Positions 7,445 through 38,004 of a stretch of 64,000 bases of DNA are shown here, piece by piece (within the stretch, counting starts at the first letter, position 1; each line of letters starts with the position of its first letter). Both the position numbers and the translations under genes were made by a program. The notes beneath the pieces are model-generated. The model searched no databases. It was not told the origin of the DNA and saw nothing but the letters and a program-made list of their open reading frames with translations. This DNA comes from Vulcanimicrobiota bacterium (GTDB taxonomy: Bacteria; Vulcanimicrobiota; Vulcanimicrobiia; Vulcanimicrobiales; Vulcanimicrobiaceae). The stretch is taken from contig CAWCIZ010000003.1 of the NCBI GenBank assembly GCA_963795855.1, positions 832,001-896,000 of the forward strand. The letters are read 5' to 3'.

Positions 7445-8146
7445 CTACGCAATGACGCGTGCCGCCTCGGAGGCGTCCGTTTCGGCGTAGAAGCGATTGT
7501 GCGTTTCGGTCACGTGCGGCGCCCACGGATCGACTTGAGCGGCGCTTACTGGGAAGTGCACCGTCGGTCCGGCTGCATCCGCGTAACTCGATCCGTCGAA
7601 CGGCTCGAATTCGCGGCTCTCGCGATGCGCGACGACAAGAGACCCGACACTCTTCGCGGCCGCATTTGCCGCCTTGCGCAAGCCATCGTCCAAACGCGCG
7701 TCGCCCGCTAGCGTATCGTACAGTTTGATTGCTGGACGGTCGGCATGCCACGGCATGTCCGGCGTGGCCGCCGAGAAGCGTACCATGCCCTGCACCGACG
7801 CTGCATCCTCGCGGATAGCCGCAACTTCGGAGCGATCGTTTTTTCGCGCAGCGATGCCGTCGTTGAGCGCTTTAACCGATGATTCGACGCTGCGCATTTT
7901 CGCGCTGTCGAGATCCAGTACGTCAAAGGCGGCGGCAGGTCCCCACGTTTGCCCGTCTGCGCCGTATTTCTGATGCATCACGTCGCCGACGAGCGCTTTG
8001 CCCATGGCGTGCGAATCGCTCGCGTTCTTCGCGATCGCATCCGCGACATCGCTTGGCACGCCGGGCGACACCATCGTTTCGGGGCTGGCTGCCAAGTACT
8101 GCACGCCGGCATGTGAGAGCGCGTCGGCGAAGCCCAGCGAGGCCAT
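7445..8146 (-). pseudogene. C-terminal half of clostripain-like (C11) peptidase interrupted by island 1
   Basis: Begins MASLGFADALS...YLAASPETM, the segment that follows the C11 catalytic CL(M) motif; N-terminal half lies at 28725-29233. Confidence 0.85.
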
Positions 8147-8192
8147 ATTATACGAAGTACAAAGGAGTATATCATTTCGTCACGAAGGCGGC
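8147..8192 (+). repeat. Left terminal imperfect inverted repeat of island 1
   Basis: ATTATACGAAGTACAAA-GGAG-TATATCATTT...GAAGGCGGC. Confidence 0.8.
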
Positions 8193-8214
8193 GCGAAACT
8201 AGGAGGCGCGCGCG

Positions 8215-9361
8215 ATGCTGCGACTGGCCTTTACCTCGAGCGCTTTTCGGCTCCATGGCATAAGTCGACCGGACATTCCCGTCATTATCGATGACAGCGA
8301 CATGTCCATCGCGCGCATACCAACTCTATGGCTTGTGTACGTCGCTACAATCCCCGGTAAGACCCGCAGCCCAAGGACTTGGCTGGCGTATGGAACGGGA
8401 GTTGTCGATTGGTTGCGAGTTTGCGATGCAAACGGTTGGAGTTGGGAAACCGCTACGGAAGAGCAGGTGGCTGCATATCGAGACAATGCTATTTCGGAAG
8501 AGAGCAGACTTTGTCGAGCGAGTCCTGGATCCGAAGTCGATTAATCTTTATCTCACAAGTCTGTGCCCGCTTCTACAAGTGGTGCGAAGAACGCGGCTAC
8601 GTTAAGGAAAGCCCTTTCAAATATGTTCGCTCAAACCGCGGTAAGCACGGTTTGTTGGCACATATTAATTCCGAGCGCGATTCATCAAAGACTCCTAGTT
8701 GCGTTACCCGAAGTCAAAGGAAAAACTCCTCGATTCTACACCGTCGGCGAAAGACGAAAGATCCAGTCACTCATGGGAACCCGGGATAGATTGTTCATGC
8801 GATGGGCGCTTTATACCGGGATGAGGATCTTCGAGATCGTGATGCTGGCGTTGAGCGATCATCCCGCACCAGGATACGTACGCTTCTGGAAAATGGCGAA
8901 AATTAAACATTCTCGGGAAAGGCGGCTACAGGAGAGATGTTTGGGTTCCATCATTCATTTTGGATGAGACGTGGACCTATATACGGTTACATCGTTCAAA
9001 GATACTTTCGGAGTGCAAAGCGCGGGGTGGTAAAACCGGCGAATCGGCGCTCTGGCTGGGTCGTTGGGGAAGTAAGCTCACTGAAGCCGGCGCGAGAGTA
9101 GCTTTCAATGCAGCGCTTGAAGCAGCCGGTATTACCGACGGCGTGTTTCACGATTGCAGGCACACCTACGCTATTACCACTCTCGATCGCCTGATGTTGA
9201 AGTCTAGCGACCCGAAGGCGAAGTCGCGTAATCCCCTCGAGGCGTTGAAAAAATTGCTTGGGCACAAGCATCTTTCGTCGACCGCGATCTATCTGCAGGC
9301 GCGAGAACAGTACTTGGAAGACCTCACGGACGATGACATTGAGGCGCCCGACAGTGTCTAG
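8215..9361 (+). CDS. Tyrosine recombinase 1 of island 1 (frameshifted in this sequence)
   Basis: AGGAGG RBS; YTGMRIFE (R), GKGG (K), FHDCRHTYA (HxxR), LLGHKHLSSTAIY (H,Y). Confidence 0.88.
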
Positions 9362-11103
9362 GGCCCTAAAACGCCACAAGGCATTCGCCGTTAAACTTCC
9401 CGCCAAGGGCTATGATCATGCAACAACATGGGCTTTCCTGGATCCTCACACGGCAACACAATGCACATTTGATTTCAGCAGAATGGCACAAGAAGCTAGG
9501 TCCGATCGTGCCGGACCTCATGGATGCAGCAAAGCGCCTTGAAGGTCACCAAAACCGCTCCGTTAGGGGTCGGAGCGCTGTATTGAATTGGTTGTTTGAA
9601 TACCTCGTTAAAGCGAATTTAAAACCAAAAGCGACAGATCTCACCGATCAGATCCTTGTCGACGCAGTTAAGTCGCGAGGACTGAAAGGGCATGCGCCCA
9701 GCGTCGTCCACGGAAAGTTAAGAAGTATTGTAAATGAGGCACTGCGTTTACAAAACGTGCAGTTAAAAGACGATTTACGATCCCTTCGCCCCTGAGCGTT
9801 TAGCAGCACAACATAGTGAGAGTTTGTCGAGAGAACAACGCGAAGCAATCCTCCAGGCCGCAATGATTGACGTTAGGCGGATCTGGGATGAATTCGAGCG
9901 AGCGCGTTCGGCCGAGGCGACGAGTGCTATGACAGTCCGTCGCTAAAATTGCCACTGAAAATGGCGGCTTTCTTCCGATTATAGGCTATGGGAAAAATTA
10001 CAAGCGACTAAAGAAAACCAAGGCGATGCGCGCATTGTGGGCATTGAAGGCCCGCGAGCGCCGTGCAGGAAGACCCGCCGACGTTAGGACGTTTGATAGA
10101 TGGCTTTATGCCACCGTTGAATCACTTCTGCCGTTTCTCATAGTCATCGCATATAAGCTCGCGGGAAACGTGTATTCGCTTTTGGAGAGTAAGCGCGATT
10201 TGTTGCGTGACGTGGACGACGTTATCCGAGGATCGCGATGCGCAGTTAGTTTCTACAAACCTAGAGCACGCAGAATATTGACGCACATGCTTAATCCGGC
10301 GGGTCGATTCTCGGTTCCCAGCCTTATCAAACAAGTGCTTGCAATGACAGATCCTTTGGTCCCGCTCGTGCCGGAAGCGATGAAGAACCGGTTGTTTATT
10401 TGCTTTAACCGTGTTGGGAACAGCAAGGGAAAACCACAGACGCTCAAGTCGACGCCAGGCTCAATGCGCCGATGGTGCCAACGACATAATCTCATGAACA
10501 AAGACGGAACGCCGTTAACGTTCACTCTCGACATGTTGCGTCCGACGAAGATCAACGACGTTTACGAGGACTCCGGTGGGGATCTGCTTCTGGCGTACAA
10601 GGTAGCGAATCACAAGGTGCTCTCCACAACGTATGATTACCTGAAGGGTATACGCGCAGCCGATCTCGATCGAAAGTCGATAGCTGACGCTCAGGGGCAG
10701 ACTCTTTACAGCATCCACCGAACGACGCGAAAAACACTCCCGAGACGGATCGCAGAAATCAAAATCTCGTGAGGAAAGGGCCAGAGCTGTCGAGCGAGAC
10801 TGTCTTGATCCAACGGACCCACCAAGATACACGGAAAAAGACCTGTGCCCGGAGTGGATGTTCACACTCGCCGATCCGCACCTTGCTGTACCGAATGATC
10901 CGAAATATGTCGCGAATATAATACTTGATCGAGATGCGTTCCTTGAGGCACGTGAAAGGATCGACGCAACTCGTTTTGCTCGGTATTATGCGAACAAATT
11001 GCGGATCATCGATCAAGAAATTCTACCAAAATTATCCCCAGATGTAGTAAAAGAAGCCACAAAGATAGCGGCTGGTTTACCGCTGCGGATGGAGATATAC
11101 TAA
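9333..11103 (+). CDS. Tyrosine recombinase-like protein 2 of island 1 (degenerate active site; frameshifted)
   Basis: LAGNVYSLL, YKPRA, FTLDMLRPT, ANHKVLSTTYDY; C-terminal CLDP...C motif. Confidence 0.7.
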
Positions 11104-12931
11104 TGGACGCTCAAGTGCAAAGCGAAACTACGCGAGGTCCCGCGGTGTCTGCTCGGAGCTGTTTCAATGACGATGTTTGGTATCTGCCCAACGCTGTAGT
11201 TACATCAGCAAGTAATCATATTCATTGGAAGGTGCAACTCGGCGAAGGTCGATGTCTAACAGATCCAATACACGAGAAGATACTTTCCACGTGTAAACAG
11301 ATGCTGTACTGCATGCTTAAAGGCGATTACGGATTTTACAAGAACGCGCGCTGCCGCACCGTGTTTGGGACCTGGAGCGCCCTAAGGCCATTAGTGGTGT
11401 GGATGATTGCGCAAGGTCTGACCGCGTTTTCGGAGATGGATGAAAACCAAATAGCAGACTTACAAGGCAAAAGTCACGTCAAGTGGGTTGTCCGAGAGCC
11501 GCCAAGGCCGATTACTCTTCCCTTTAAAAGTGCTTGTGGCGCTGCGCGATAAGATTGAAGACCAACCTCCCATTAAGCCTCATGTAATGATGGAAATCCT
11601 GACGCTACCGTCCACGGCGCAAAACGAGTGCAAGACGCCTGCGATCCCAGACCATATTGCCATGCCGTTATTTCGAGAGGCGCTGGAATTCATTGAGGCA
11701 AATGCGGATTTTATTTGTGAAGTCTACGCGCAAGATTGGGAAAGCCGGCGTGTTCACTATCGGGCTACCGCAAAGGCTGGCATGACGCATGGCGCCGGCG
11801 CGTTGCGTGTGAGTCGCGAACACTTCGAAAAATATGCGTCATGCGACGTCATTCAGGCCGGTAGCCAGATCTATGCAATTCGAGAGATCTCGCAAGTGAA
11901 CGAAATGGTAACCCTACTGGAGACTGCCTGCTTTATCGTAGTGGCCGGGTTCGTTGGCATGCGCATTAGTGAGATCGGCTCATTAAAATCGGGTTGCCTT
12001 TCGGTCCAAAAGAGCAATCGCGGTCTAACATTACTTACCGTGCACGGCCTTCTTTTTAAGACTTCCAGAGAAGAAGAGGGTGTCCCGTGGCAGTGGGTCG
12101 CCGGTTGGGACGGGCCAGAAAATGTGGTCCGGAAAGCGATCGAAACGCTTGAGCGGCTTCGTCGCGCAGAAAAGTGTGAGCCAGCATCGAGTAGATATTT
12201 ATTTACCAGAAGTCACGGCCGCTTTGTGGATGGAGACGCGAATCCCCTGAAGAGCTCCTACTTTACTGCGCGAGTCAATAAATTTGCACGGCTTTATGAC
12301 ATTGAGCCGTGGCATTTTACGCCTCGCCAATTTCGACGCACCTTTGCACGGTGGGTAACGCGAAAGGACCCGAACGCGTTGCTCGCGCTTCGTCGTCACT
12401 TTGCTCATGTCTCGGTGCAAATGACGGAATTCTATTCATTCTGGGATAGTGACCTAGTCCAAGAAGTGTTAGACGCGGATATTGAGCAAGACTATGAAGC
12501 ATTGGACGAGATACTTGCCGCGGATCATTTGGCGGGCCAAAAGGGCGAAGAAATTCTGTCTCGCAACTACCGATTCCGTGGTGTCGCCGGAGAGGAAGCG
12601 CGGGAAGTCTATATCCGCGCCGAACTTGCGCGTCCGGCCGATGAACAGCTGATCATTATGCGTCACGATTACGGATATTGCATTTACTTAGACTGACAAG
12701 GCGGCCTGCGGCGGTGAACGCTGGCGCATCGGTATTGACACGTGTATGGGATGTTCAAACGCCGTATTTACGAAGCAGCATGTGCCTTTCTTAGTGCGCC
12801 AGAAGGAAGCGCGGCGTTCGATTATAGGCGCGCCAATTTTTAAGACGCTTTCAGTCCGAGCTCAGACCGACGCACAAAATGGACTTGAGCGCGTAGAAAA
12901 GCTGCTGATCGATCTTACGGGGGCGGCCTAG
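11103..12931 (+). CDS. Tyrosine recombinase 3 of island 1 (frameshifted)
   Basis: FVGMRISEIGSL, LFKT, TPRQFRRTFA, HFAHVSVQMTEFY, Cys-rich tail GYC...C...CMGCSN. Confidence 0.85.
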
Positions 12932-13309
12932 TGACGAAGAAAGAGCAAACGTTGCGCAATCTCAACGCGGCTTTGTCGCGCCTAATGAAAGGAAAACCAA
13001 CGAATGAACACAATCAGAAAAACAAGAGCCAGGTTTCTGTAGCGGCGGTGGCCCGAGAGGCAGGCGTCAAGCCCGTCACTGTTTTTAGATACCCATCTGT
13101 ATGCGATCGTATAAGGGAATTGAAAAAGCGATCGAAGAGTGCCAAGAGAACAGCAACCCGCGTCGCGAATGCGGCGGCTGAAAATCGTGAGCTAGAAGGC
13201 AGATTCGGTGTCTGATCGATCGAAATATGGAATTAACGGTTAGTCTTTCAAAATATGAGCTGTGGCGTCCGATCCGAATATCGCGGATATCGTCGGAGCC
13301 CGTCTATAG
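12931..13309 (+). CDS. Small HTH/coiled-coil accessory protein (TnpC-like)
   Basis: VSVAAVAREAGVKPVTVFRYP HTH followed by a coiled coil; fourth gene of the module; 3' end frameshifted. Confidence 0.65.
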
Positions 13310-13384
13310 TGCGACCCGACAAGTTGCACAGCGGATACGCGAACATTAGTCAGTGCAGACGAAAGCATAGCAGCCGTGCGTGAT

Positions 13385-14153
13385 TTGAGCGTCGGAATTC
13401 TCATAATCGGTTCCCTCTTATGGGACCCGGACAAAAAGCGCGTTAATTGGCGCAGATTCCCGTCTAAATATGAACGCTCAACGATATGTATGGACTCATA
13501 CCCGTTATGGGCGAACTTCTAAGGGGCGAGAATGCACCCATACGATGGTGTTCTCGACGTCGGCCGCGCAGAGCACCGCCGTCGTCGTACCCTGTCAAAA
13601 CGCGTTGAGCTCGTTCGATGATTTACGCCAAGAATCTCAACAACTCGCAGTTGCCGAAGGGCTTGGCGAAGGAAAAACTTGGAAGGACTTCGGAGCGGTT
13701 GGCATTCTTTCGAACCCGTGTTCACCCGAGGCGCAAACGCTGCTAGAGCCGTGGTCGAAGTATTTCCGGGAGCATTTCAACATTGACTGCAAAGTAACAA
13801 GGGTGAAGGGCGCCGGCGAGGAGCCGAGTCTACAGAGTGATGGCGTGCTTAACGTTGCATGGCCAAAGTGCATACGAACGCAGGAGTCAAGCGCATACGA
13901 TATTCTGCTCGCCACGGCCAATGCGCCAAACCTAAACGGAGACGATTCCTATCCAACGGCGGAGCAGATTGCGGACCGGTTCACCCAGCAGCAGTACATC
14001 ACATATTTCTCTGAAAACGTGAAGGCAGATATTTTCACCGCCGACGATCCCGAGATTTGGTCTAACGTCACAACATGGAATCCGGATTGGATATCTGTTG
14101 AAGAGCGCGTCTGCATTGATGCGGCAATTACAGCTCGGCAATCCGGCGCCTAG
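13385..14153 (+). CDS. Hypothetical protein, possibly gamma-glutamylcyclotransferase-like fold
   Basis: N-terminus in another frame reads SVGILIIGSLLWD, then RYGRTS...TMVF; frameshift near 13460. Confidence 0.5.
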
Positions 14154-14273
14154 TATCGCCGAGCATTCTTTCGCCCCGTAGCGACCAAAAACCACTAGGA
14201 GAGGCGGATGAGGCGGTTTCCTAGGAGTTGGTGAAGTCATCTACCTCTGTCCGCTGCAAAGAAAGCGTTGCAT

Positions 14274-15267
14274 ATGAATTGGGTGTTTCAATCGAATCCG
14301 AAATTGTTTGACCTTTCGAAGGCGCTCGACGAGCGATCTGCGCACACACGACATTGGGCGATGAATCAACTGCGCTCGGAAGTCACGCCCGGTGACCGTG
14401 TCTACTTCTGGCGCTCCGGCGTGGATGCGGCTCTCGTTGCCATCGGCAGAATTACTTCGCCGGTGTACGAACGTGAAGGCAACCCGTTTGGTCGGTGGGC
14501 CATCGACGTCGAATATGAGTACAAGATTCAACCTACTCTAAGCCGTGCTGAGGTCCTCGCCGACGATACGCTGACGAACGTGCGTGTTTTCAAAGGAGCA
14601 CAAGGCACCAACTTTAAGATCGATGCAACTCAAGCGGCTGCGCTCGACAGACTTACTGATCAGCGGCGTGTTCGCATTGAGGGCCCTGTGGGACCACCGC
14701 CCCCCGACAGATCCTATGCGCGCGGTGACGGAAGCTCTTCGTCATGTGCATACTACAAACGTTCGCGCGATCTCAGGTTTCATGGCCGACATGGACCCAA
14801 CGCATTTTGAATGGCTGGTCGCTGCCGTCTTTGTGCGCGCTGGATATACCGACGTTGAAGTTACGCCGCCCAGTGGTGATCGCGGCATCGACGTTAAAGC
14901 AACGGCACCGGGAGTTGTCCCGATTCGCGTCTTTATTCAGGCCAAACGTAAACCTTCCGTCGGCAGCCCCACTGTAACGCAACTACGTGGTTCTTGTCCG
15001 TCTGGCTACAGTGGCATACTCGTAACGTCAGGCACTTTTACGGACGAAGCATACGACGAAGCAGCAGACAAGACGAAACATAATCAAATCACCTTAATCA
15101 GCGGGAAAGAATTCGCGGAGCTCCTGTTGGACAATGGGATCGGCACGCGACGGATACCATTGGAAACCCACTCGTTAGCGCTGGATGAAATAACGCTCCC
15201 GTTCTTACAGGAAATTGTCCAAGTGCCGGCAGAAGCGACTGCTGACGCAACGGCTCTGCGTCCATAG
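14274..15267 (+). CDS. EVE domain - Mrr-family restriction endonuclease (frameshift near 14715)
   Basis: EVE-like WVFQSNP...W...PGDRVYFWRSG; Mrr catalytic domain MDPTHFEWLVA...SGDRGIDV...IQAKR...GILVTSGTFT. Confidence 0.8.
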
Positions 15268-15431
15268 CAAGAAAGTAGCAACTCTAGATGGGCAGATTCC
15301 AGACGATCTCCGATCTAGGCAAACCGTCATGTTTTTGAACTGGCCAACGGCGGGTTCGTGAACTCTGCAATTGAAGCGGCGGCTCCAACGGTCATCGCTC
15401 GTGCTCATTGCCGAATCTCTGTCAGATCAGC

Positions 15432-16356
15432 TTAAACATCGTGCAGTTCTTCGATCAAAGCAAGGTCGCCGATTAAACTTCCGGCCGGCGATACCGTTGC
15501 CGTATGCAGGCTGTTGAACGGTGCACGCTCCGGATCGCCAGGCGATGCATAGCGCAGCGTATTGTACGCGGCTTCGAACTGAGGATCGTTCATGATGCCA
15601 GCTTTATCTGCTAGATGGAAAATCGGAGCGGCGCCGGTTGTGGACATGAGGCCACCCGATTCGTCAAAGTCCAGCAATCCGAGGCCGCGGATATGTGCGA
15701 GGTCGGCAAAAGTGTAGTGCAATTCGCCGAAGCGCAACGAACTATGGCGGAACGACGACAGCAATGCGTCGCGGGAATCGTCGGGATAGAGGCGCGTCAA
15801 TAGCTCCTCTCGCGCGCGGGCTTCCCGCGACGAAACCCGAATTGGTCCCGTCTGCAAAAAGCTAATGAGGGCGAGCAGTCGCACCTGGCGTGGGGTGAGA
15901 TCGCGTATCCGCTCGATGGCAATGCGAGCGGCAAGCGCTTCGAGCGATTCGTCGGGCGCTTTCAGCCGCTCGACGACAACGTCCGCTAAAACGTGAAGCT
16001 GCAAGCCATCGTCAGTGTCCATCGCTGTCGCAAAGGCCTCTTGCAGGGCGCCGGTTACTTCGGGGAGTGCGAATAACACATCGAGTCGCGATTCGTCGAA
16101 TTGACGCGCGTGCTCGAGTGCATCCACGCGCGCATCCAGGAGTACAACGAATCTTCGCAATCGTTCTTGCGCCGTTTCCAAATCGGAGCCGAAAATGAGA
16201 TCATTGGCGCCGCCGCCGAAGCGTTGGCCCAAGACGCGCACGAGCGCAGGTCGCGCGCGGCGCGCGATCGTGCCAAGGCCAGCATCAAGTGCCTTGCTCG
16301 CGAATATAATCGACGGCAAGCGAGACGATTTCCGGTGGAACCGGCGGCAGGCTCAT
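15432..16356 (-). CDS. Hypothetical helical protein
   Basis: ~300-aa ORF; start inferred across a probable frameshift. Confidence 0.55.
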
Positions 16357-16588: not shown

Positions 16589-16852
16589 TCATTTCGAGTC
16601 TTCGAAAAGGTTCGCGATCTCGTCATTCGACGCGTCGAAATCGTCCGCGATTTGTATGTTTTTTCCATCGACGCCCAATTCACGCTTCCGATGCGCCTTA
16701 TCTGCTTCGCCTTTTGGGGACTTGGAATCTTCGGGCAAATCCCACAATTCGCGCTCGCTCTTGACGTACGCGTCAGAGTTTCCGTAGACGCCTTTCAATT
16801 CACCGGCAAATGACTTGCCAACCCGACGCTGCGTTTTATCGTCTTCCTTCAT
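16589..16852 (-). CDS. Small protein made of two antitoxin-tail-like segments
   Basis: GELKGVYGNSDAYVKSERELWD and RELGVDGKNIQIADDFDA...IANLFE. Confidence 0.55.
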   Translation of the reverse strand: MKEDDKTQRRVGKSFAGELKGVYGNSDAYVKSERELWDLPEDSKSPKGEADKAHRKRELGVDGKNIQIADDFDASNDEIANLFEDSK

Positions 16853-17215
16853 CCTATTGCGACCCGTCTGCGGTTGTGATGCGACAATAATCAGCGGCTG
16901 GAACGTCCCAGCATGGCAAGAAAATTAATTCCTATAACTGAGTTCGTCCGCGGTCGGAACCCGGTCGCGCGTTGGCTGTCCATCTCGCCTGAGGACGCCT
17001 TCCTCGTTCCAAATGCCTTCAACCCGGTCGCGTACGCCGGAGGTCGTGTGGCATAGGTCGTTCCATATTTCGCTGGGTGTCAGGAGATCACGTATTCCGA
17101 CAACTAGCTCTGAAAATCTCATGCCTGCTATTACCTCGTCTGATATGCATGGTTTCGCCGTTCCCCGACCGAGCCGGTTCGACGCCGTTTCCGCCGATGA
17201 AGGCCCTGGCCTGGC

Positions 17216-17440
17216 CTAGTTTGGTCGTAGTAACCAGTCTTCGAGCTCTTCGTACAGTGTGGGCCACAGCGCCGTGCCGATCTTCCCGATTGCGGTTCCC
17301 TCGTCGGAATACATGCGGGTCAGCAGCTCGCTTAGCATCTCGTTCATAGGAGCTGCAGTACCCGCAACAGCGCCAGACGGGACATCGCGGCCGGCCGCAC
17401 GACGATTAACCATTGAATCCCCGCCACGGTTGTTCCGCAT
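17216..17440 (-). CDS. Small hypothetical protein
   Basis: 74-aa ORF co-oriented with neighbouring small ORFs. Confidence 0.35.
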   Translation of the reverse strand: MRNNRGGDSMVNRRAAGRDVPSGAVAGTAAPMNEMLSELLTRMYSDEGTAIGKIGTALWPTLYEELEDWLLRPN

Positions 17441-17512
17441 GGTTAGTCATTGTCCATGTGTCAACGCGAATTTCGGCTTCTAGAAGTAGTAATCCCAAAC
17501 GGAGCATCGGCC

Positions 17513-17710
17513 CTACTGCGCGCGCCGCTGATCAGCGGCACGGTCCAAACACTCTCGTGCCCAATTAGGTTCATCACGCACGTCGTCGTGCAAGCGCTCG
17601 AGTTCAAGATCTGCCCCGTCAATGGGTGATGAGCGAAAAAAATCAAACAAGTTAGCGTAAGCGTGCCCGGGTTCGTTCCTAATTTCCGATTGTTGCGATT
17701 CGTCGTTCAA
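17513..17710 (-). CDS. Small protein with a Phd/VapB antitoxin-tail-like segment
   Basis: NLFDFFRSSPIDGADLELERLHDDVRD; GAGGTG RBS before the TTG start. Confidence 0.55.
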   Translation of the reverse strand: MNDESQQSEIRNEPGHAYANLFDFFRSSPIDGADLELERLHDDVRDEPNWARECLDRAADQRRAQ

Positions 17711-17753
17711 TTTTTGTCACCTCACATTTACGTGCTTATGCGGTCTGGCCTTT

Positions 17754-17993
17754 TCATCGTCTAACTTCGTGCAGCAGCTTCAGAAATGCCACGTAGGCCC
17801 GCTGTTCCTGTTTGCATGCACGAGACAATGCGCGAGACCATTGAAAAGCGGTTAAAAAGGCAACCGAAACGCCGGCAAGCATGACGCCCCAATGTGGTAG
17901 CAGTCGCGCAGTGGCGCACTCATAACCTAAAAGTAGAATCGCCAAGTTCGTGACGGCGTAGATCGGAAACATGGGTCGAAACGGAGCTTTCAT
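17754..17993 (-). CDS. Small 2-TM membrane protein
   Basis: Two hydrophobic segments; closely coupled to upstream ORF. Confidence 0.5.
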   Translation of the reverse strand: MKAPFRPMFPIYAVTNLAILLLGYECATARLLPHWGVMLAGVSVAFLTAFQWSRALSRACKQEQRAYVAFLKLLHEVRR

Positions 17994-17999
17994 TGCGAG

Positions 18000-18296
18000 T
18001 CACCTTTCGGACGCTCTGAGGCGCAAAGGCATTCCGCTCGACCGGCGTAGTTTTACCGCTCGCTGGATCTCGTATGAAACGATACTTGCATAGCGCGACA
18101 GCGCTTGTCGTTGCTCCGGCACGGACCACGCGTCGATGAGGCGTGACACTTCGGCTGACTTCGCAAATACGTATCGAATGTGCCCATCGCTGAGCAGTTT
18201 CCGGTTTAACAGCTTCTGTCGATTAAACAAAAGCCATGATGCCAGCTTAAGGTTCTCAACAGCGACCGTCTTGAATCCCCTGTCATTCCAAGGCAC
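18000..18296 (-). CDS. Small basic hypothetical protein (DUF5659-like, phage/MGE type)
   Basis: NLKLASWLL...YVF pattern; divergent from the HTH gene. Confidence 0.45.
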   Translation of the reverse strand: MPWNDRGFKTVAVENLKLASWLLFNRQKLLNRKLLSDGHIRYVFAKSAEVSRLIDAWSVPEQRQALSRYASIVSYEIQRAVKLRRSSGMPLRLRASER

Positions 18297-18375
18297 TTAG
18301 AACGTTCCCCCGATGGAGCCCCGAGCTAGTGCCTTGCGCTGGATTTCCCCAGGCCGGTGAATTGGGGCGTTATTA

Positions 18376-18393
18376 CACGCCATATATGGCGTG
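18376..18393. promoter_or_regulatory. Perfect 18-bp palindrome, candidate operator
   Basis: CACGCCATATATGGCGTG between the divergent DUF5659-like and Xre genes. Confidence 0.6.
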
Positions 18394-18651
18394 GTGCATC
18401 CCGAGTTCCTTCTGTACGCTCGCCTGGTGGCGGACCACCAGTACAAGCGGGCTCTCAAACGTCTAGCCGCCAACATTCGGAAGCGGCGACGAGAGCTCGG
18501 CCTAACGCAGGAAGACGTTGCTCATGCGGCCGACATGGCGGTTCGACATTTTCAAAAGCTCAAGGACGCGGACGTTAACGTCACGCTGCGGACGATGGCG
18601 AAAGTTGCGCGTGCGTTGAAAAGCGAACTACGCGAGTGTTCTAGCCCTTGA
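18391..18651 (+). CDS. Xre/C-protein-like HTH regulator
   Basis: LAANIRKRRRELGLTQEDVA...NVTLRTMAKVARAL; true start may be slightly downstream. Confidence 0.8.
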   Translation: MVHPEFLLYARLVADHQYKRALKRLAANIRKRRRELGLTQEDVAHAADMAVRHFQKLKDADVNVTLRTMAKVARALKSELRECSSP

Positions 18652-19825: not shown

Positions 19826-19849
19826 TGCGAACTCGGGCTCTGCGCGTTT

Positions 19850-21602: not shown

Positions 21603-21737
21603 GCGCCCTCCTCAAAAACGTCAACCCGTGTCTTTTAACGCACTTTTTTGCAAAAATCGTCAACTGTCCTGCTGGTTTAGTCGCTATTTGTCTACGTCGC
21701 TTCGCCTCGTTGGGCCCCGGCAGTGGAATGGGGGGCC

Positions 21738-22658
21738 TTAGTTGGCATCGTCGCCTCCCGGCGCGCCGAGGCTGCCGAACGAGACGGACGCACGAGCCAA
21801 ATACGAATACAGAGCGACACAGAGGTTGACGGCGAAGGTCGCGTCATCGCGTTCAGAGACGTCGAATCCTTGATGAACCGGATGCGACATCCACCCGTTG
21901 GCTGTGCGGATTAATTGCCCTAATAAGGCAAACGGATCCGAAGCGCGCCGCCTTTCGCGTAGTTGTCCCGCGATTCGATCGATGTAGGGAGCAAAATACT
22001 CACCTTCGTTACGTTTCTCGCCCAGCGCGCCGCCGACGGCTTCGGTTATTCGCTCAAGCGCTGTACGAGCAGTCGCGACCGCTTCACCGTAGCGACCGTC
22101 GGAAAGGAATCGCGAAGCAGCCTCTATCAGCTCGGACGCATGGGCCCAGTTTCGACCTGCAGCGGGAGGCGGCGCTGGCAGTTCGATAATTCGAACCGCC
22201 GCGCTACCAATCGCGCCCAATGCGCGCGTCCACACATCGCGCGGCACCTGCAGTGGCGGAATAAAGTTTGTAGTGTAGCGTCCTAGATTGCCATCACCGG
22301 CCGGTGTTCCGATCGCGCGCAAATCGACGTTGAAATGCGGTTCTTTGCCCGCACGAACGCGTTCGATTCCGGCCACTTGATGATCTGATAGCGGAACGAT
22401 CAGTTCCGCCGTGCCTCTTGCCACAGATTGAACCGGAATCGCGATCCCGCCGCCTTCACTGGACCATTTCAACATGCCCTCAAATAACAGCGGATAATGC
22501 TTCGACTCGTGCACAATCTGCACGCCGATGTGTAACATCGGCCCAAAGGCGCTACGAGAGCCGCGCACACGCGCGGGGTCCATTTCAATAATGACAAGCG
22601 GAGCGCCAGGGCGATGCTCGTTGGAAAGTCTCGATTCGCATTGAGGTGTCCAAACCAA
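21738..22658 (-). CDS. Hypothetical protein with helical, possibly HEPN-like C-terminus
   Basis: Long ORF; EAVATARTALE helix and R...SH segment. Confidence 0.55.
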   Translation of the reverse strand: MVWTPQCESRLSNEHRPGAPLVIIEMDPARVRGSRSAFGPMLHIGVQIVHESKHYPLLFEGMLKWSSEGGGIAIPVQSVARGTAELIVPLSDHQVAGIERVRAGKEPHFNVDLRAIGTPAGDGNLGRYTTNFIPPLQVPRDVWTRALGAIGSAAVRIIELPAPPPAAGRNWAHASELIEAASRFLSDGRYGEAVATARTALERITEAVGGALGEKRNEGEYFAPYIDRIAGQLRERRRASDPFALLGQLIRTANGWMSHPVHQGFDVSERDDATFAVNLCVALYSYLARASVSFGSLGAPGGDDAN

Positions 22659-22688
22659 AGAGAGGGCCCGTAGGTGGGCCCTCGCGAG

Positions 22689-22897
22689 TTATTTATTTTT
22701 TAAGGCATCGGATAAGGTATCAAAACCTTCGCGTTTCAGATAATTGCCCAGCTTCATGTCGTTGCGCGCGCCGGGGGCGAAGATCAGGGTAATCCTTACG
22801 CAAGGTGCCTATTAGCGTATCACTGCGTTTGCGATGAATTTCGCCGTTGACGTCGCGATGGCGATCGATCGAGACCCGGCTGTTGCCGTTTCCCCAT
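22689..22897 (-). CDS. Small basic hypothetical protein (~68 aa, two indels; not in ORF track)
   Basis: MGKRQQPGLD/RHRDVNGEIHRKRSDTLIGTLRKDYPD/FAPGARNDMKLGNYLKREGFDTLSDALKNK; GGAG RBS; hairpin GAGGGCCC...GGGCCCTC downstream. Confidence 0.6.
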
Positions 22898-23076
22898 GGG
22901 GCGTTCTCCTTTGCCGCTGTGCGGCCGAAGGAGGCGGGCGAAATCGGGAGAACGCGAGGCCCTGGATGACTAGGGATCGCGGCCGTTTCGGACGGCCCGC
23001 CTCTGGTGATAAAGCGACGGCGTTAGGGCGCCGTCGCTTCCTTACTTTCGGGATAGTTTTCCACAGCCCTAGCGGG

Positions 23077-23089
23077 GAACATACGTTCG
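23077..23089. promoter_or_regulatory. LexA (SOS) box-like site
   Basis: GAAC-ATAC-GTTC(G), the Gram-positive-type GAAC-N4-GTTC consensus, ~60 bp upstream of the methyltransferase. Confidence 0.55.
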
Positions 23090-23145
23090 GACACAAAATC
23101 TTGTGGTGTTAGGTGGGGATAGGCTGTGAATAGGGGCGAACGAAC

Positions 23146-24215
23146 GTGAGCATGAGCGGGCGTGATGGTCTGTACCTTGCGGACCTCTTTGCGGGAGCCG
23201 GTGGGATTACTGAGGGCTTTCGCCGGGCCGGGTTCACTCCGGTGGCCGCGGTTGAGTTTGACCGCTGGGCGGCACAAACGTACGCGGCGAACTTCGGCGA
23301 CCACGTGCTCGCGTGCCCGATCGAAGACGTCGTTGTCGATCATCGCGACGGTATGCTCACATGGAGCGGCCGAAACGTCGCCGGCGAACCATTAAGTTTT
23401 GAAACGCCCGAAATTGACGTGCTGGTCGGTGGGCCGCCCTGTCAAGGTTTTTCTCCGCTCGGGCGCATGAACGATTGGGATTACGATGATCCCCGGAACA
23501 AACTCTGGAAGCACTACGTACGAATACTCGATACCCTCCAACCCAAGGTCTTCGTGATCGAGAATGTGCCCGAAATACTGAAGTCGGCGGAGTTTGATCG
23601 GCTTCGTAAACACGTAAAACGTCTTGGGCACGGATACGATCTCGCTTACGGCGTGCTCAATGCCGCCTTTTTCGGCGTGCCACAAACCCGCAAGCGCGCA
23701 ATCATCATTGGCAGTCGTATCGGCGCGCCCACTCTACCGCCCGAAATGTCGAGCGCATGACAGTGCGGGACGCTATCAGCGATCTACCGCTCAAAACCCA
23801 ACGGCGAAAATTGGCATATTGGCCGCAACCCACTTCCCATGTCGGTCGAACGATATAAATGCGTACCGGAAGGCGGCAATCGCTTCGATCTGATGGAAAA
23901 GCGCCCCGATCTTACGCCGAATTGTTGGAAAAAGAAAAAGACTGGTAGCACGGATGTATTCGGACGCATGAGGTGGGACGAGCCGGCACCTACCATCCGC
24001 ACGGAATTCTTTAAGCCCGAAAAGGGCCGATACTTACACCCACAAGCTCACCGCCCGATCACGATTCGAGAAGCGGCGCGCCTTCAGACCTTTCCCGACG
24101 AGTTTATCTTCGCCGGGTCCAACGTGCAGGTCGCAAAGCAGATAGGAAATGCCGTCCCCGTAAAACTTGCCACCGCGATTGCGCGTCACGTGCAATCATT
24201 GCTTGGTCGCCGTGT
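23146..24215 (+). CDS. dcm: C5-cytosine DNA methyltransferase (frameshift near 23750)
   Basis: DLFAGAGG, GGPPCQGFS, ENV, PQTRKR, REAARLQTFPD, QIGNAVP. Confidence 0.93.
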
Positions 24216-24833
24216 CAAGAAACAAAAGAGAAACATCAAGCAAACAGCAGCAGCGCCTAAACCGCGCATAAGCGATCGAGTACGCCTGCTCGATTTTCTG
24301 ATGGCGCATCCCGACCAAATTTTTGACAACGAGTCATTGCGAAGGATGCTTGGGGAAGGAACGAACAGACAGTTGGACTCGTCGGCTTCGCTCGCTTCGA
24401 GAGGCGCAGTATGGTGGCTATACGGTTCTCAGTCACCTTGATCGCAAGGAACTTAAGCCAGGTCAATACATTTTCCCAAAACAACCGCGACGCGAAGCAA
24501 AGAAGGGACCGCGCATATCGGGGAGGGTGCGCGGTGAGGTGCTGCACCGTGACGCGTATACGTGCCAGGCTTGCGGCCTTGCTCGTGGCGAGCGTTACGA
24601 CGACGGCCGCGCGGTCAAGTCTACATGTAGCACACAATCAGGCGCATTCTCAGGGCGGAAAGCCAACCGTGGAGAATTGCTTTACATTGTGTTCGAGATG
24701 CAATGAAGCGGAATCCGATATCGGTCCGGATCGACCTGTCCTTTCAAAAACCATGGCTCAGGTGCGCCGACTTCCACGCCACGAGCAGCAACAGATCTTC
24801 AGTTTTCTACTCTCCGTGTTCAAAGATGAATAA
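24216..24833 (+). CDS. wHTH-HNH endonuclease (frameshifted; possibly fused to the MTase)
   Basis: WTRRLRSLRE...LKPGQY, RDAYTCQACG, LHVAH...GG...ENCFTLCSRCN. Confidence 0.75.
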
Positions 24834-25220
24834 ATCTGAACAGATGGCGCGAGTTCGTTCTCGGGATACGCAGCCTGAGCTGCTCTGTGCGCCAACTTCT
24901 ATCGTCGCAGCATGTGCGCTACCGTCTGCATCGTCGGGATTTGCCGGGGCGACCGGATGTGTACATAGGACGTCTTCGCTTGGCGCTTTTTGTTAACGGG
25001 TGCTATTGGCACGGGCACGACTGCCGTCGAGGCGGTCGTCCAAAGACCAATGCCGACTTCTGGAACACGAAGATTGAACGCAACAAAGTTCGAGATGCTT
25101 CGGCGCGGTCGGCATTGTCGAGCATGGGTGTAGAGAGTTTGACGCTATGGACGTGCGAGATGAAGCTTTCCTTTCGTCTGTCACGCGATCGCGAAACGAT
25201 ATCGGAAAGCGGTAAGGTGA
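24826..25220 (+). CDS. vsr: Very-short-patch repair endonuclease (frameshifted)
   Basis: MARVRSRDTQPE, LPGRPD, FVNGCYWHGHDC, FWNTKIERNKVRD. Confidence 0.9.
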
Positions 25221-26115
25221 ACGAATTTCTTCCAAGGCTTTCGTCAGCTCGGGAGTCGTTTCTAGCAAAAATAAAGGCTGAAATACTTTGGATAAAGCCA
25301 CTCGATAAGGTAAAAGAGCGGATTAGTAAGAACCTTCCTTCCCAGGTCCTCGGTGCGGTGAGCATTGCCGATGTCGACAACGCATCATCGATTCGCATAG
25401 CGTGGGAATGGGCGTCCCGCTTGGCGGGCAACTTTGCAGCGGAAGAACCGCGGCAAGATTCGGGAAGCTCTTCCAGTTCGCGGTTCGAGATTTTTTGCAA
25501 GAAGGCTTTCACCTAGGCAGCGACCTTAGGCCCGGCGATTGGCAATGGAAAACGGAGTATCCGGTTTCGCACTTTGATCAGTATGCTCACTTGGACGATA
25601 TTCGTGAAGCACTTGAACGCGATAAGGAATTGCGAACGATATTCTCCGAGCAGTACCTTGTCGTTCCCGACATTGTTGTATATCGCAGTGCGGTCTCCGC
25701 TAAATCAGTAGGGCGGAGCCCGGACTACGATAAGATCGCGGCGCTTTCTCCATTGCTTGATGACGCTCAACTGTCGCGTAGTCATCCGCTGCTTCACGCC
25801 AGCGTGTCGTGCAAGATAACGATGCGATCAGATCGTGCGCAAAATAGTCGAACCGAAGCCTTAAATTTGATTCGCAATCGCAAAGGGCGTGTCCCGGCAA
25901 TCGTGGCGGTGACCGCAGAACCGCTACCGACTCGCCTCGCTTCCCTTGCGCTTGGCACCGGCGACGTTGATTTCGTGTATCATGCCGGGCTACCTGAATT
26001 GCGGGAAGCTCTTGCAGTCGTCGGCAATGAAGATCAGCTCGATATGCTGAACACATTAGTTGAAGGTCGTCGCATCCGCGATGTCGCTGATCTCGTGCTT
26101 GATCTTCTCATTTGA
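25217..26115 (+). CDS. NgoMIV-family type II restriction endonuclease (frameshifted)
   Basis: FDQYAHL, PDIVVYR, LHASVSCKITMRSDRAQNSRTEALNLIRNRKGR, LASLALGTGDVD. Confidence 0.88.
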
Positions 26116-26127
26116 GACAGGGGGAAT

Positions 26128-28203
26128 ATGGCGGGCGATAAAACACCTAAGGATAGCGGCACCGGTGGTCAACCCTTAAACGAGCTACAACAACGCGAGG
26201 CTGGCGGTGACAGTCCGGGAGCCCATCTCGATTTTCACGGGCGCATCATAGAACATCTCGGCCTACAGATGTACCAAAGCCCGACGGCCGCTATCGCAGA
26301 ACTTGTTTCGAACGCGTGGGACGCCATTCTACAAAGGTACAAATCACGCTACCCGACACGCTCGGCGACGATGCCACGATCGTGATCAAAGATTTCGGGA
26401 ACGGAATGACGCTTCAGGAGATAAGAGAGCACTACCTCAAGGTAGGCCTTAAATCGACGCGGATCCAATCCTGACGAACGCAGCCCGCTGCTTGGTCGCG
26501 CAATACTTGGAAGAAAAGGCATTGGAAAATTTGCAGGCTTCGGCATTGCGCGCAAAATCATAGTCGACACGATTAGTCGGAATACGGGTGAGCACACGAA
26601 ATTCGAGCTCTGATTATGATCGAATTCGCGGCGCAGGCGATGAATACGTCAATATCGCTCCCCTTGAGATACCCGGAGCTGAATACGAAGGGCCCGACCA
26701 ATCCCGTAAAGAGCAACACGGTACTACGATTACTCTTGCGGATTTCAGCATCTCCCGACGACCTCCCGGAGACCAGATGCGTAACAGCATGTCGCGGCGC
26801 TTTAGCTTCGGCGCGACCATTTCTGATTTCGAAATATTTATAGACGACGTGCCGTACTTGCGGATATCGATTCTGACGGCGTTCAGTTTAGCTTTCCACG
26901 GGACTACGAAGAATCTGAGCGCCCCTCAACTTTGGTTCGCATCGACGGCGAATGGGGTGTGGAAAGACTCTCCGATGGCAACGATATTAAATGGCGTTAC
27001 CGGTTTTACACCGACACAATAAGCGAAAAGGAGCTCGCCGGCGTTGCTGTCTTTACGTCCGGTAAGGTTGCACAGATGCCGTTCCTTTTCAATCTTGCCG
27101 GTGGCCTAGGCGGTCAGCACGGAGTCGCCTACATGGCGGGAAGAGTGGAGGCGGACTTTCTAGACCATCTTCCGCGGGACATCATTGCGCCCGAGCGTCA
27201 ACGAATCGATTGGGAGGCGCAGGAGGCTTCCGTACTGCTCGAATGGGGACAAAGCCGAACCAAAGAACTGTTGCGTATTTGGCATGATCGACGCGGTGAA
27301 AGGCGTCGTCAGCGTTTAGCATCACGAATGGCAACAATAGAGAGCGAGCTCGCGTCAATGCAAGGACGTGAGCGTCAGCCAATCGACAACATTGTGAATA
27401 ACCTCGCGCGCATGGAGAGCATAACGGATGCGCAATTCCTTGACACGGCGCGCTCGCTGGTTGTCGCTTGGAAAGCAGGTCGTCTCAAGGATTTGATCGA
27501 GAAAATAGGCGATGCTGAAGCACTTGACGAGGCTCAAATGCTTCAGATACTCTTGGAGGCAAACGTCTTAACTGATCTCCAAATGGCAGAGGTCGTCCGT
27601 ACCAAGATAAACATTGTTCGCGAGTGGCGCAGGCGAGTGGAGCGGCGCGACGTCGAAACTTCTCTTCGCGACTATATTGCTGAACATCCCTTTTTGATAT
27701 CGCCGCGCTGGAACACGTTTGCCATTGAACGACGCGTAAATACGATAATATCGGATGCCGCCGCAGAATCTGGAATAGAGACAGACCCGGCGTACCGGGG
27801 CAGAATCGACCTCATTATGTCAAGTAATGACACGCTGCTCGTGATCGAGTTCATGCGCCCAGGTGTGACACTCGATCGCGATCACGTCCAGCGCTTTCAA
27901 ACGTATATTGCGGAAATTAAACCCGCATTGGCTTCGAACAATCTACTTCCGCTCAAGAATGTTATTGGCTATCTCGTGGCCGACAACACAAATCGACGAC
28001 CGGCAGTAACACAATTAATTGCCGATATGTTGAAGAACGAGCAATACGTCGTTACATGGAAGACGCTGTTAGATATGGCGGAAGCGGAATGGTATGATCA
28101 GATGGAGATATTAAAGGACCGGTCAGGTGATGAAACGCGTATTCAAGACATTGCAAGGGATATAGAAAGACCTACATTGCCAAATGGTCTTGACGACGTA
28201 TAG
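26128..28203 (+). CDS. MORC/HSP90-like GHKL ATPase with C-terminal PD-(D/E)xK-like domain (frameshifted)
   Basis: AELVSNAWDA, DFGNGMT, GRKGIGKFAGFG; C-terminal HPFLI...RIDL...VIEFMRP. Confidence 0.85.
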
Positions 28204-28213
28204 TTAGAACGTT

Positions 28214-28399
28214 TTAATCGGCACGTCGGCTGGATAGCGCGTCCCGGGCAGCACGCTCCGCTGCTATGCGAACGAATTCGGAGATGCCCAGCTTGGCGGC
28301 CGACGCTCCACGTACGATCAGGTCCTTTTGCTCTGCTGAAACCTTTATCTCAATGCGATGCCGAGTCGTCGCGGAAGGGCTAGGTTCGCTGCGTTCCAT
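28214..28399 (-). CDS. Ribbon-helix-helix protein (DUF1778/TacA-like), no GNAT toxin adjacent
   Basis: RIEIKVSAEQKDLIVRGA...GISEFVRIAAERAA. Confidence 0.7.
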   Translation of the reverse strand: MERSEPSPSATTRHRIEIKVSAEQKDLIVRGASAAKLGISEFVRIAAERAARDALSSRRAD

Positions 28400-28668
28400 G
28401 CGCGTTCGTTCATCGCGCAATGTGTTCGCCCTGCGGCATGGGCGCGCCCAAGAACATGAGCCGTCTACAGTTTCTATACGGAGACTTTTTGGCGCCGGTG
28501 GACTGACGACCGGCGTTGTACGGGCCGGTGAATCGCTCAGACTCACCGCTTCTCATTACGAAATTAAATCACGACGAGCTTCGGGAACGGCGCGCGCGGT
28601 GCCGTAATGGGATACGGCCAGTCGCGTAAGTTCGCATTATCATCGAACGCGTTATCCAAATGCACGAA

Positions 28669-28720
28669 GCCGCCTTTCAAATCGGCTACGCCAAATGATA
28701 TAGTTTGTATTTTATATAAT
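28669..28720 (-). repeat. Right terminal imperfect inverted repeat of island 1
   Basis: Reverse complement ATTATATAAAATACAAA-C-TATATCATTT...AAAGGCGGC; 14/17 then 10/10 identity to the left end. Confidence 0.8.
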
Positions 28721-28724
28721 TGGC

Positions 28725-29233
28725 CAGGCATTGATTTGCTACTACCCCGTCGATTTTTCGATTGGCATCCTCCGGATGCGCCTGCGCGTGCAACTTTACG
28801 CCGTCCGCAATAGCCTGCGCGATCTTCGGCATGGGCATGATCTGGTGCGCGCTGTCCGCTTCCAGACCGCCGCCGTCGCCGGCCCCGTGATCGGTGAGTT
28901 CGATCCAGGTTTGCTGTGCGCCGGAGTCTCAGCGTTGTCGAGCACGTGCGCCACGAACTTGGCGAGATTCTTTTCGGACGCCATGTCGTGCGGCGCATCG
29001 ATCGACGCCTGGCCGATTCCCCCGTCCGCTACGCTGAAGCTGTCCGTGCGCAGCACGCCGGTTCCCACCGACGTCGTGTCTTCGACGGTGTACTCGACGC
29101 GCGAATCCTTCGCGCTGGTTTGCAACGCTTGGCGAAGCGTGACGCCTTGCGATTCGTCCAAATTGTTGTCGCCGTCGCGATAGATGCCGAATTCGACGCT
29201 TCGCTGCGCCGGCCGGCGAACTGATTCAACCAC
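28725..29233 (-). pseudogene. N-terminal half of clostripain-like (C11) peptidase
   Basis: GIYRDGDNNLD, DMASEKNLAKFV, HGAG (catalytic His), GVVANQCL (catalytic Cys) ending at the island boundary. Confidence 0.85.
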
Positions 29234-37995: not shown

Positions 37996-38004
37996 GAAGC
38001 GCTC

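Follow-up and report, generated by a model that had tools for sequence, protein, structure and literature searches.

A probable integrative element with an SE-order recombination module in the gene of a predicted C11-like peptidase of Vulcanimicrobiota

In a 64,000-nucleotide stretch of the genome of a Vulcanimicrobiota bacterium (GenBank assembly GCA_963795855.1, contig CAWCIZ010000003.1, positions 832,001 to 896,000 of the forward strand), hereafter the window, one conserved peptidase gene is interrupted by an element of 20,578 bp that occupies positions 8147-28724. Very probably, this is a member of the superfamily of integrative elements that comprises the SEs (strand-biased circularizing integrative elements), GInts and Tn554; it carries a recombination module in the gene order of the SEs and was inserted site-specifically, the cut falling between Leu169 and Met170 of the peptidase, one codon past an invariant cysteine. 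The module, comprising four genes on the plus strand, fills the left 5 kb of the element, and the 15 kb beyond it are cargo made up of anti-phage and restriction genes. The element has a copy number of one in the 3.06-Mb genome, and its GC content ranges from 0.50 to 0.59, against 0.59-0.65 in the flanks.

Insertion site and ends of the element

On the minus strand, the N-part of the peptidase (residues 1-169, 28725..29233) ends ...DGVVANQCL at 28725, and the C-part (residues 170-401, 7445..8146), 78.5% identical to residues 161-401 of the orthologue in the same-genus genome G005, begins MASLGFADALSHAG (MASLG) at 8146, confirming the coordinates and junction bases given in an earlier note made from the sequence of the window. 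The G005 gene (locus L002, 1501-2703, minus strand, 401 aa) is intact, reads GCAAATCAATGCCTGATGGCCTCA (ANQCLMAS) across the site and equals the two flanks of the window joined, with 0 target bases lost and 0 duplicated; synteny with G005 is kept on either side of the insert. The motif ANQCLM[AS]SLGF runs uninterrupted through 11/11 orthologue loci fetched from related genomes (L002-L012; 10/10 when the unpublished genome L008 is set aside). Because the joined flanks give ANQCLMASLG and thereby match these intact orthologues, the empty site corresponds to the C-L-M-A join that the earlier note had proposed, predicted to read AGCGAGGCCAT followed directly by CAGGCATTG. The same note had offered a C-L-A join by crossing over within GGCCA, the only sequence (5 nt) common to both junctions; this candidate was rejected, Met being kept in all 11 orthologues. 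Also rejected was the possibility that the gene is naturally split here, since it is mostly one open frame of ~400 aa and the splits hold inserted mobile DNA.

The element is bounded by imperfect terminal inverted repeats. The left arm, ATTATAcgAAgTACAAaggAgTATATCATTT (8147..8177, plus strand), adjoins the first recombinase gene, is the equivalent of motif C of the SEs and is identical in a second copy of the element, in genome G061, described below; the right arm, AAATGATATAgTTTGTAttTTatATATAAT (28693..28720, plus strand), is AT-rich and is the equivalent of motif C'. When the ends are aligned directly, the left arm matches the reverse complement of 28693-28720 at 24/28 aligned bases with one 3-nt gap, 14 of the 17 outer nucleotides agreeing and a 10-nt subterminal identity lying beyond the gap. 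A generic inverted-repeat finder returned 412 pairs, and these gapped terminal repeats were absent from the 25 shown. Between the right arm and the restored target stand the extra junction bases TGGC (28721..28724, plus strand), whose counterpart in G061 is TAGCGAT, and both repeat arms are conserved in that copy. The description in the earlier note of a discrete tyrosine-recombinase element with definable ends, imperfect inverted repeats with TGGC at the right, no true target duplication and asymmetric junction bases stands in each of these parts.

The number of extra bases depends on where the right repeat is taken to stop. If it ends ...TATATAATT, the extra sequence in G061 amounts to exactly 6 nt (AGCGAT), as in SEs and Tn554, and that of the window to 3 nt (GGC); allowing for the position of the boundary, the G061 extra is 6-7 nt. 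A relative in genome G160 shows the arrangement X-CCGCGG-element-CCGCGG-Y, in which the inverted-repeat element has the tips TTTT...AAAA and the intact gene has ATCGCGGCTGC. The GGCCA repeat at the junctions of the window may be the remnant of a brought-in GGCCAT from a same-site donor, three bases short, and this shortfall may have come about by a later deletion, a shifted crossover or an assembly fault. In a metagenome scan, the end consensus ATTATAYRAARTACAAA gave at least 118 AT-rich chance matches, and among the matches listed none was window-like beyond the motif.

A second copy in the same codon

When the genome collection was scanned with aligned sequences of gene C, third in the module, 17 loci were found. 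At one of them, in the Candidatus Eremiobacteraeota metagenome-assembled genome (MAG) G061 (the same genome as G370), the gene C protein is 95% identical to that of the window, and the element, ~26.0 kb in length, lies in the same gene and the same codon with an identical left junction, GAGGCCAT followed by ATTATACG. DNA identity between the two copies is 55-66% in the peptidase C-part (bins 7500-7999), reaches 85% in bin 8000-8249, which straddles the junction, and amounts to 94-99% from the start of the element to the end of gene D; on the right, the flanks are 78% identical. The cargo differs, as do the right-junction bases (TAGCGAT in G061, TGGC in the window). Because a core of 94-99% identity stands between flanks of 55-78%, with differing cargo and junction bases, the comparison shows two apparently independent insertions at one codon, site-specific and recent relative to the divergence of the hosts, in agreement with the fairly recent insertion that had been proposed from the window.

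The recombination module

Gene A (8215..9361, plus strand) encodes an ordinary, IntA-like tyrosine recombinase in which R, HxxR, H and Y are all present; in the window it is distributed over several frames, with an in-frame stop at 8542-8544. Gene B (9412..11103, plus strand; frameshifts at ~9770-9935 and ~10700) is recombinase-fold and Tfp-like; Asn takes the place of its first catalytic Arg, and HxxR lacks its first His. Across 10 aligned homologues of gene B, Asn is invariant at Arg-I and HxxR has no His, whereas the second Arg, the last His and the Tyr are conserved. Gene C (11103..12916, plus strand; frames 11103-11480, 11488-12696 and 12695-12916) encodes a large, IntB/TnpB-like tyrosine recombinase with R, HxxR, H and Y, although its HxxR His is Arg in the window copy, and with a C-terminal Cys motif; such a C-terminal Cys cluster is common to genes B and C. 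Phage_integrase is matched by genes A and C and not by gene B, an intact B homologue likewise giving no match. Gene D (12931..13290, plus strand) encodes a small protein, the counterpart of Srap, TnpC and GinD, which measures 94 aa here against 118 aa in G061, a T being missing near 13192. Of the three tyrosine recombinases counted in the earlier note, A and C are thus upheld, and the middle gene, without the first Arg and the HxxR His, is not; the TnpC-like small fourth gene and the defence cargo are present as described there.

In relatives of the element, the four genes overlap by a few bases and encode products of ~390, ~600, 610-670 and 120-170 aa. By tblastn, the order A-B-C recurs, with intact genes, in all distant loci where the contig permits, followed by an open reading frame (ORF) of ~150-170 aa, and the full four-gene module is present in 5 further Eremiobacterota genomes. 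Within the phylum, a gene C homologue (E <= 1e-20) occurs in 8/401 sampled genomes; outside the genome set, the closest protein relative of gene C, P0002, is 84% identical and is encoded on a 25.6-kb contig. Between the recombinase genes of the window and of G061, pN/pS takes values of 0.05-0.46 in four in-frame stretches and ~0.23 when pooled, which shows that the four-gene module has been under purifying selection.

The interrupted peptidase

The C-part of the peptidase was found by protein search in 54/61 related genomes, mostly within open frames of ~400-450 aa. Among the other same-genus genomes it occurs in 6/7, G003 giving no match; five of these six holders have open frames of ~400 aa or more, and in the sixth the gene is cut by the contig end. 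The two halves in the window and the G005 orthologue have no match in Pfam or NCBIfam, and a profile search of Protein Data Bank (PDB) sequences with the peptidase gave a chance match only. However, 3/4 homologues with 64-82% identity to the G005 orthologue match Peptidase_C11 (PF03415) at 27-32 bits, against a cut-off of 25.8. The AlphaFold model of the G005 peptidase (pLDDT 76, pTM 0.83) finds clostripain 9cip as its best PDB match in a fold search (E 4.6e-11), followed by the C11 proteases 6nag, 6mzo and 3uws. All 31 sequences of an alignment have His115 (in DHG) and Cys168 (in NQC), which fits the His/Cys dyad of the C11 family. The predicted fold and the Pfam matches of homologues support the view that the interrupted gene encodes a divergent, predicted C11 (clostripain-like) peptidase, and together with the invariant Cys168 they favour the placement of the insertion beside the putative catalytic Cys, as the earlier note had it. 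No signal peptide is detectable by eye in the peptidase. The genes next to it are unremarkable, encoding an ABC-F ATPase in the window and an LD-carboxypeptidase in G005, and no spare peptidase copy was found on the window element, on the G061 element or elsewhere in the genome of the window (G000).

Relation to known elements

The core of the SEs, which were described in 2022-2023, consists of intA-tfp-intB-srap, in this order, at the left end, IntA and IntB having the RHRY residues and Tfp the fold without the motif (PMC10214605). SE ends are imperfect inverted repeats of 13-19 bp, target duplication is absent, and a six-base copy of the donor's left-flank sequence stays beside the far repeat (PMC10214605). 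The element in the window shares with SE-6283, SE-6945 and their relatives (PMC10214605) a left-end module of four overlapping genes in the same order, imperfect terminal inverted repeats without target duplication, extra bases beside the far repeat, target specificity, and the presence of cargo together with the lack of transfer genes; moreover, its gene C shows homology to the third gene of an SE-group module. Because gene order, motif pattern, ends and junction asymmetry agree, we regard the element as SE-like. Judged by these sequence comparisons, it appears to be a distinct branch with SE architecture rather than a proven SE, and its homology to SEs is real but thin.

That homology was traced through plasmids, where gene C matched 250 records. 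Compared with the third gene of a module on the Pseudomonas aeruginosa plasmid pZYPA162, gene C gives an E-value of 7e-15 and 26.7% identity over 87% of the query. The fourth gene of that module, WP_009681707.1, is the RefSeq reference for Srap entries in the supplementary sheet 'SE_gammaproteobacteria' of PMC10214605, and the SE status of the module rests on this one supplement look-up. Genes A, C and D match module genes 1, 3 and 4, respectively, with E-values from a one-locus database; in this one-locus search the match between gene D and the Srap-like gene is weak (E 1.2e-4).

Several observations weigh against the assignment. Gene B gives no significant match to the second gene of the pZYPA162 module (E 0.24), and the authors of the SE work, whose search criterion was homology to Tfp and Srap, report no homologues of either beyond Gammaproteobacteria, a confinement that they take as dependence on host factors (PMC10214605). 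The right-junction extra in the window is 3-4 nt against the 6 expected from SEs. Within the copy itself, Arg replaces the first His of HxxR in gene C, and the whole module is out of frame in the assembly, with two or three frame changes apiece in genes A, B and C. Finally, no circle-junction or empty-site molecules were seen among the short contigs of relatives assembled from soil metagenome runs.

Other differences from the SEs concern hosts and cargo. SEs have been reported only from Gammaproteobacteria, and this element resides in Eremiobacterota; the titles and abstract openings of the papers found to mention SEs name no other phyla. The product of gene B has no BLAST-detectable similarity to Tfp. 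SE cargo confers drug resistance and the cargo here serves defence, and in the present case a conserved enzyme gene is destroyed at its active site.

Alternative readings of the window copy

The rival that survives best holds that the window copy is a dead relic, its recombinase, methylase and restriction genes decayed, so that it neither moves nor restores the peptidase. We consider this possible, if rather unlikely. Its strongest support comes from the comparison of the core with that of G061, in which 14/16 indel events within 5.1 kb consist of an extra base in the window. Contigs from 4 soil runs of 3 studies, 88-99% alike, cover parts of the module and the cargo, and they side with G061 against the window at 8508, 8560/8561, 8691, 9478, 9773, 9936 and 13192. 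The stops at 8542 and 23758 and the loss of the HxxR His in gene C point in the same direction, as does a frame change near 28925 in the N-part of the peptidase, which the earlier note had missed and which is absent in G061.

However, core genes of the same assembly are frameshifted too. Flanking genes carry frameshifts relative to G005 (window 1340-2270 and 35700-41400), a DNA ligase gene outside the window (G000:C3:1026000-1028500) shows at least 4 frame changes within ~100 codons, and the assembly, in 6 contigs, reaches a completeness of just 86%. These frame changes in core genes point to many indel errors in the assembly or to genome-wide gene decay, and of the two we hold assembly error to be clearly the likelier source of the frame breaks. 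The extra bases in the window (8100-13260) lie outside homopolymers and about half of them stand beside their transition partner (TC for C, AG for G), a pattern that might fit a consensus merging two co-occurring variants, such as a mixed-strain consensus error. Besides, the G061 copy is broken at different places of its own, and the pooled pN/pS of 0.23 indicates that the genes were under selection until recently. The SE-like integrative element remains the preferred reading. The word 'complete', applied to it in the earlier note, is not borne out by the assembled sequence, in which all three recombinase genes, as well as cargo genes that include the methylase, are either frameshifted or interrupted by stops.

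Concerning the soil runs themselves, the share of element words in them is 0.05-0.08, as contigs of relatives. No soil contig bridges a junction, the closest records reaching 29 flank letters (X1 record 1) and 11 (X4 record 16). An apparent soil-contig joint, 8051->17261, was disregarded, having a 21-letter side.

A second rival would make the element a GInt proper, a RIT or a member of the Tn554 family instead of an SE-like branch, and we judge it improbable. The GInt version draws on three recombinase-fold genes and a small gene at one end, variable cargo with restriction-modification genes, an AT-rich far end and site specificity, and on the report of GInt operons from several phyla (PMC5385486). 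GInts carry ginABCD, all four genes being required for recombination, with cargo of 2.5-70 kb that often includes restriction-modification genes, and their borders are imperfect direct repeats of 10-17 nt (PMC5385486). In contrast, the protein without the first Arg is the third (GinC) in GInts (PMC5385486) and the second here, where the third gene has that Arg; moreover, GInts sit mostly at gene ends and leave the product unchanged, whereas here the gene is cut mid-way and just GGCCA is repeated.

As for the other two families, the earlier note had called the element RIT/Tn554-like, a label that yields to the IntA-Tfp-IntB-Srap order of the SEs. RITs do resemble it in having three adjacent recombinase-fold genes between inverted repeats and in occurring in many phyla. 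However, RIT recombinases are small (315-410 aa) and all catalytic, with the Tyr motif, and RITs have neither a fourth gene nor cargo (PMC10214605, Table 1), whereas the present element has a fourth gene and 15 kb of cargo, and B and C of its relatives measure ~600 and 610-670 aa. Members of the Tn554 family likewise enter a conserved host gene without duplication, radC being the target gene of Tn554, and the spare target copies carried by relatives of the window element (see below) recall the 'target-gene-like' (tgl) gene that Tn552-II of this family carries and that was proposed as a rescue (PMC12486829). Yet Tn554, with tnpA-tnpB-tnpC, encodes two recombinases and no counterpart of gene B (PMC10214605, Table 1), its hosts are Firmicutes, the transposon is small and its cargo confers drug resistance, and the window element is without a target copy.

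For the SE-like element, we propose a course of integration by analogy with SEs, Tn554 and GInts. A and C, aided by B and D, would recombine the ends into a circle whose joint holds ~6 bases of the left flank of the donor. A staggered exchange between circle and target would then place the 6 bases native to the target next to the left repeat and those brought in next to the right one, which would account both for the missing target duplication and for the additional bases on the right. As to target choice, the family would recognise very conserved DNA, its relatives lying at active-site codons of other enzymes.

The skin element in sigK and the phage in comK are examples of reversible gene switches, and the insertion in the peptidase gene could be read in the same way, as a programmed switch in which precise excision under some condition rebuilds the gene. 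The flanks would rejoin exactly in the wild-type frame (CLMA) if the element were cut out conservatively, and both halves of the peptidase are still open in G061. Against this, recombination of attL and attR in SEs is described as giving a circle, nicked and derived from one strand, and no empty site (PMC10214605), and in GInts the empty site is formed in some strains only (PMC5385486). Just 2 genomes carry this element, the N-part of the peptidase has its further frame change in the window assembly, and the same stretch of the gene holds unrelated elements elsewhere, among them casposon-like ones with target duplications, that are incapable of precise restoration. We therefore assign a programmed switch a slender probability; reactivation of the protease by excision, which the earlier note had suggested, is doubtful because published SEs produce no empty site (PMC10214605).

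Hardly any probability attaches to one ancient insertion inherited vertically, or co-transferred with its flanks by homologous recombination in place of site-specific integration, which would explain why the window and G061 share the codon and the left junction but not why identity jumps from 55-66% to 94-99% exactly at the junction, why the right flank is just 78% identical, why the cargo is unrelated save for 2 kb at 82%, why the right-junction bases differ (TGGC and TAGCGAT) or why five uncut same-genus loci keep open frames of ~400 aa or more.

Distant relatives and their targets

Besides the G061 copy, the scan with gene C recovered 16 distant loci with gene C products 31-35% identical to that of the window, in MAGs of Alphaproteobacteria, Deltaproteobacteria, Dehalococcoidia, Bryobacteraceae and Gammaproteobacteria and in the isolate Novosphingobium fuchskuhlense. 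At the predicted empty site, the gene is uninterrupted in the 11/11 loci given above. Beside homologous recombinase modules, the end motifs are kept in G061, whereas the left ends of the distant loci have other motifs, as expected at such distance.

The sites of these relatives lie in other enzymes. At several distant loci, the left end adjoins a reverse-strand HELCHSSGH..., with which the HExxH of a zincin metallopeptidase domain of ArdC type begins. In G160, G361 and G252, the module follows ...INPYRG and precedes the first Cys of the radical-SAM motif CxxxCxxC (NPYRG/C, the slash marking the cut); the intact radical-SAM gene in G000 reads NPYRGCYHQCVFCY. The module of G131 and G400 comes after ...EDKYD, inside the KxDG motif of an ATP-dependent DNA ligase (EDKYD/G). 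The modules of these five genomes (L163-L167, L169, L172) are intact. In 4/4 target types examined, the peptidase (NQCL/M) included, the insertion is within two residues of a catalytic motif. In the elements that occupy the radical-SAM and ligase genes, gene D is immediately followed by a complete copy of the target gene.

Two observations on individual relatives may be added. About 100 nt upstream of the radical-SAM start codon, L164, L166 and L167 have CGAACGTATGTTCG and then TATTATACT, which we take to resemble a LexA box of the CGAAC-N4-GTTCG type. L154, on the conjugative plasmid pLA1 of Novosphingobium (161921-168681), has the four-gene module beside an ArdC-like gene pair, whose single-stranded-DNA-binding and zincin parts are annotated separately, with a second, diverging integrase pair upstream.

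The peptidase gene as a shared landing pad

The peptidase gene is present in 289/401 sampled genomes of the phylum, and in at least 19 of these 289, checked by coordinates, it is split in the stretch described here, eight times by casposon-like elements encoding Cas1; the counts include genomes that are related and not independent, and some that are unpublished. They draw in part on 15 genomes chosen for giving two weaker matches, of which 13 have the gene in two pieces meeting at residues ~156-197 and 2 have it contiguous with stops. Both pieces share one contig in 9/13 of the two-piece genomes, 3.1-86 kb apart, and a Cas1 homologue lies inside 6/9 of the gaps. These six are G209, G208, G344, G241, G135 and G159, with halves 15-31 kb apart (G159 has two Cas1 homologues, and that of G208 contains stops); the gaps of G100, G215 and G221 measure 4.0, 3.1 and 86 kb and are without that Cas1.

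Two further inserts were delimited in G016 (L188, G016:C41:201200-220400) and G056 (L189, G056:C52:87800-106800), where the peptidase halves are 18.8 and 18.7 kb apart. At the DNA level, these inserts, of ~18.7-18.9 kb, are unrelated to the window element and to each other, and both encode Cas1. The G016 insert has a near-perfect terminal inverted repeat of 36 nt, that of G056 being clear and less exact, and both are flanked by target duplications of ~14-18 nt at (S)LGF(AD/SS), lying downstream of the site used in the window by three to eight codons. The G056 insert also encodes a 1017-aa ORF with a weak family-B polymerase match, an nSTAND3-Mrr protein and DUF6610. Casposons are Cas1-encoding transposons (PMC4046053, PMC5137440), and by their sequence the two inserts look like casposons; the active-site region of an enzyme is not among the targets named in the casposon abstracts consulted. 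The likeness to the present case extends to the target, in that Cas1 elements in eight genomes split the same peptidase gene, the elements themselves being unrelated to that of the window.

In two more genomes, the halves lie on different contigs: in G039 (L184/L180), the gene is cut at GVV/ANQC beside an inverted repeat xAAT...GTCTACT, and in G054 (L186/L181), at AASPET with CACATG tips.

With somewhat better than an even chance, in our estimate, this branch of elements homes to DNA that encodes enzyme active sites, and the ~30 codons around the peptidase Cys form a landing pad for at least three unrelated kinds of element. In the boldest version, the caspase-like peptidase would act against mobile DNA, and knocking it out would pay the invader; in a plainer one, the site may be the most conserved dispensable DNA available.

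Cargo

The cargo begins with an EVE domain and an Mrr-type restriction endonuclease, type IV-like, in two overlapping frames (14268..15267, plus strand), followed by an LPO_1073/Vpar_1526-family protein (15432..16319, minus strand). The segment 19340..22658 (minus strand) encodes an HNH endonuclease resembling defence effectors, a protein combining an RmrA-like HTH with an M78 peptidase, and a 306-aa ORF without assignment. In a type II restriction-modification block (23146..26115, plus strand), a C5 cytosine methylase interrupted by a stop at 23758-23760 is accompanied by an HNH protein, a Vsr nicking endonuclease and an NgoMIV-like restriction enzyme; a BbrUII/HgiDII-like restriction enzyme in pieces follows (26128..28203, plus strand). 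No conjugation or replication genes were recognised in the element. The sole cargo stretch common to the G061 element, window 16596-18635 (82% over 2 kb), has no family match and no clear long ORF.

Implications

The kind of element (SE, GInt, Tn554), the brought-in flank bases, the restriction cargo and, in one Tn554 relative, the spare target gene are already in print. In the excerpts of the literature returned by our search, we found no SE-order module in Eremiobacterota, no C11-like peptidase as a target, and no single target stretch common to recombinase islands and Cas1 elements. An SE-order module in Eremiobacterota, with relatives in Alphaproteobacteria, Deltaproteobacteria, Dehalococcoidia and Acidobacteriota, thus gives this architecture a wider range than reported, and the sequences can serve for building profiles.

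For its hosts, soil bacteria of a little-known phylum with few cultured members, the element is a carrier of restriction and anti-phage genes from species to species. Spare target copies are one way in which the cost of insertion is paid; the window element carries none and removes a conserved protease. If the motif upstream of the radical-SAM gene is a LexA box, the recombinase operon inserted there would sit behind a damage-inducible promoter. The location of 4/4 targets at active-site codons suggests how such elements find a target that is identical in many species, and recombinase islands and Cas1 transposons competing for the same 60-90 bases would make the peptidase gene a rare natural case in which target choice can be tested on one DNA.

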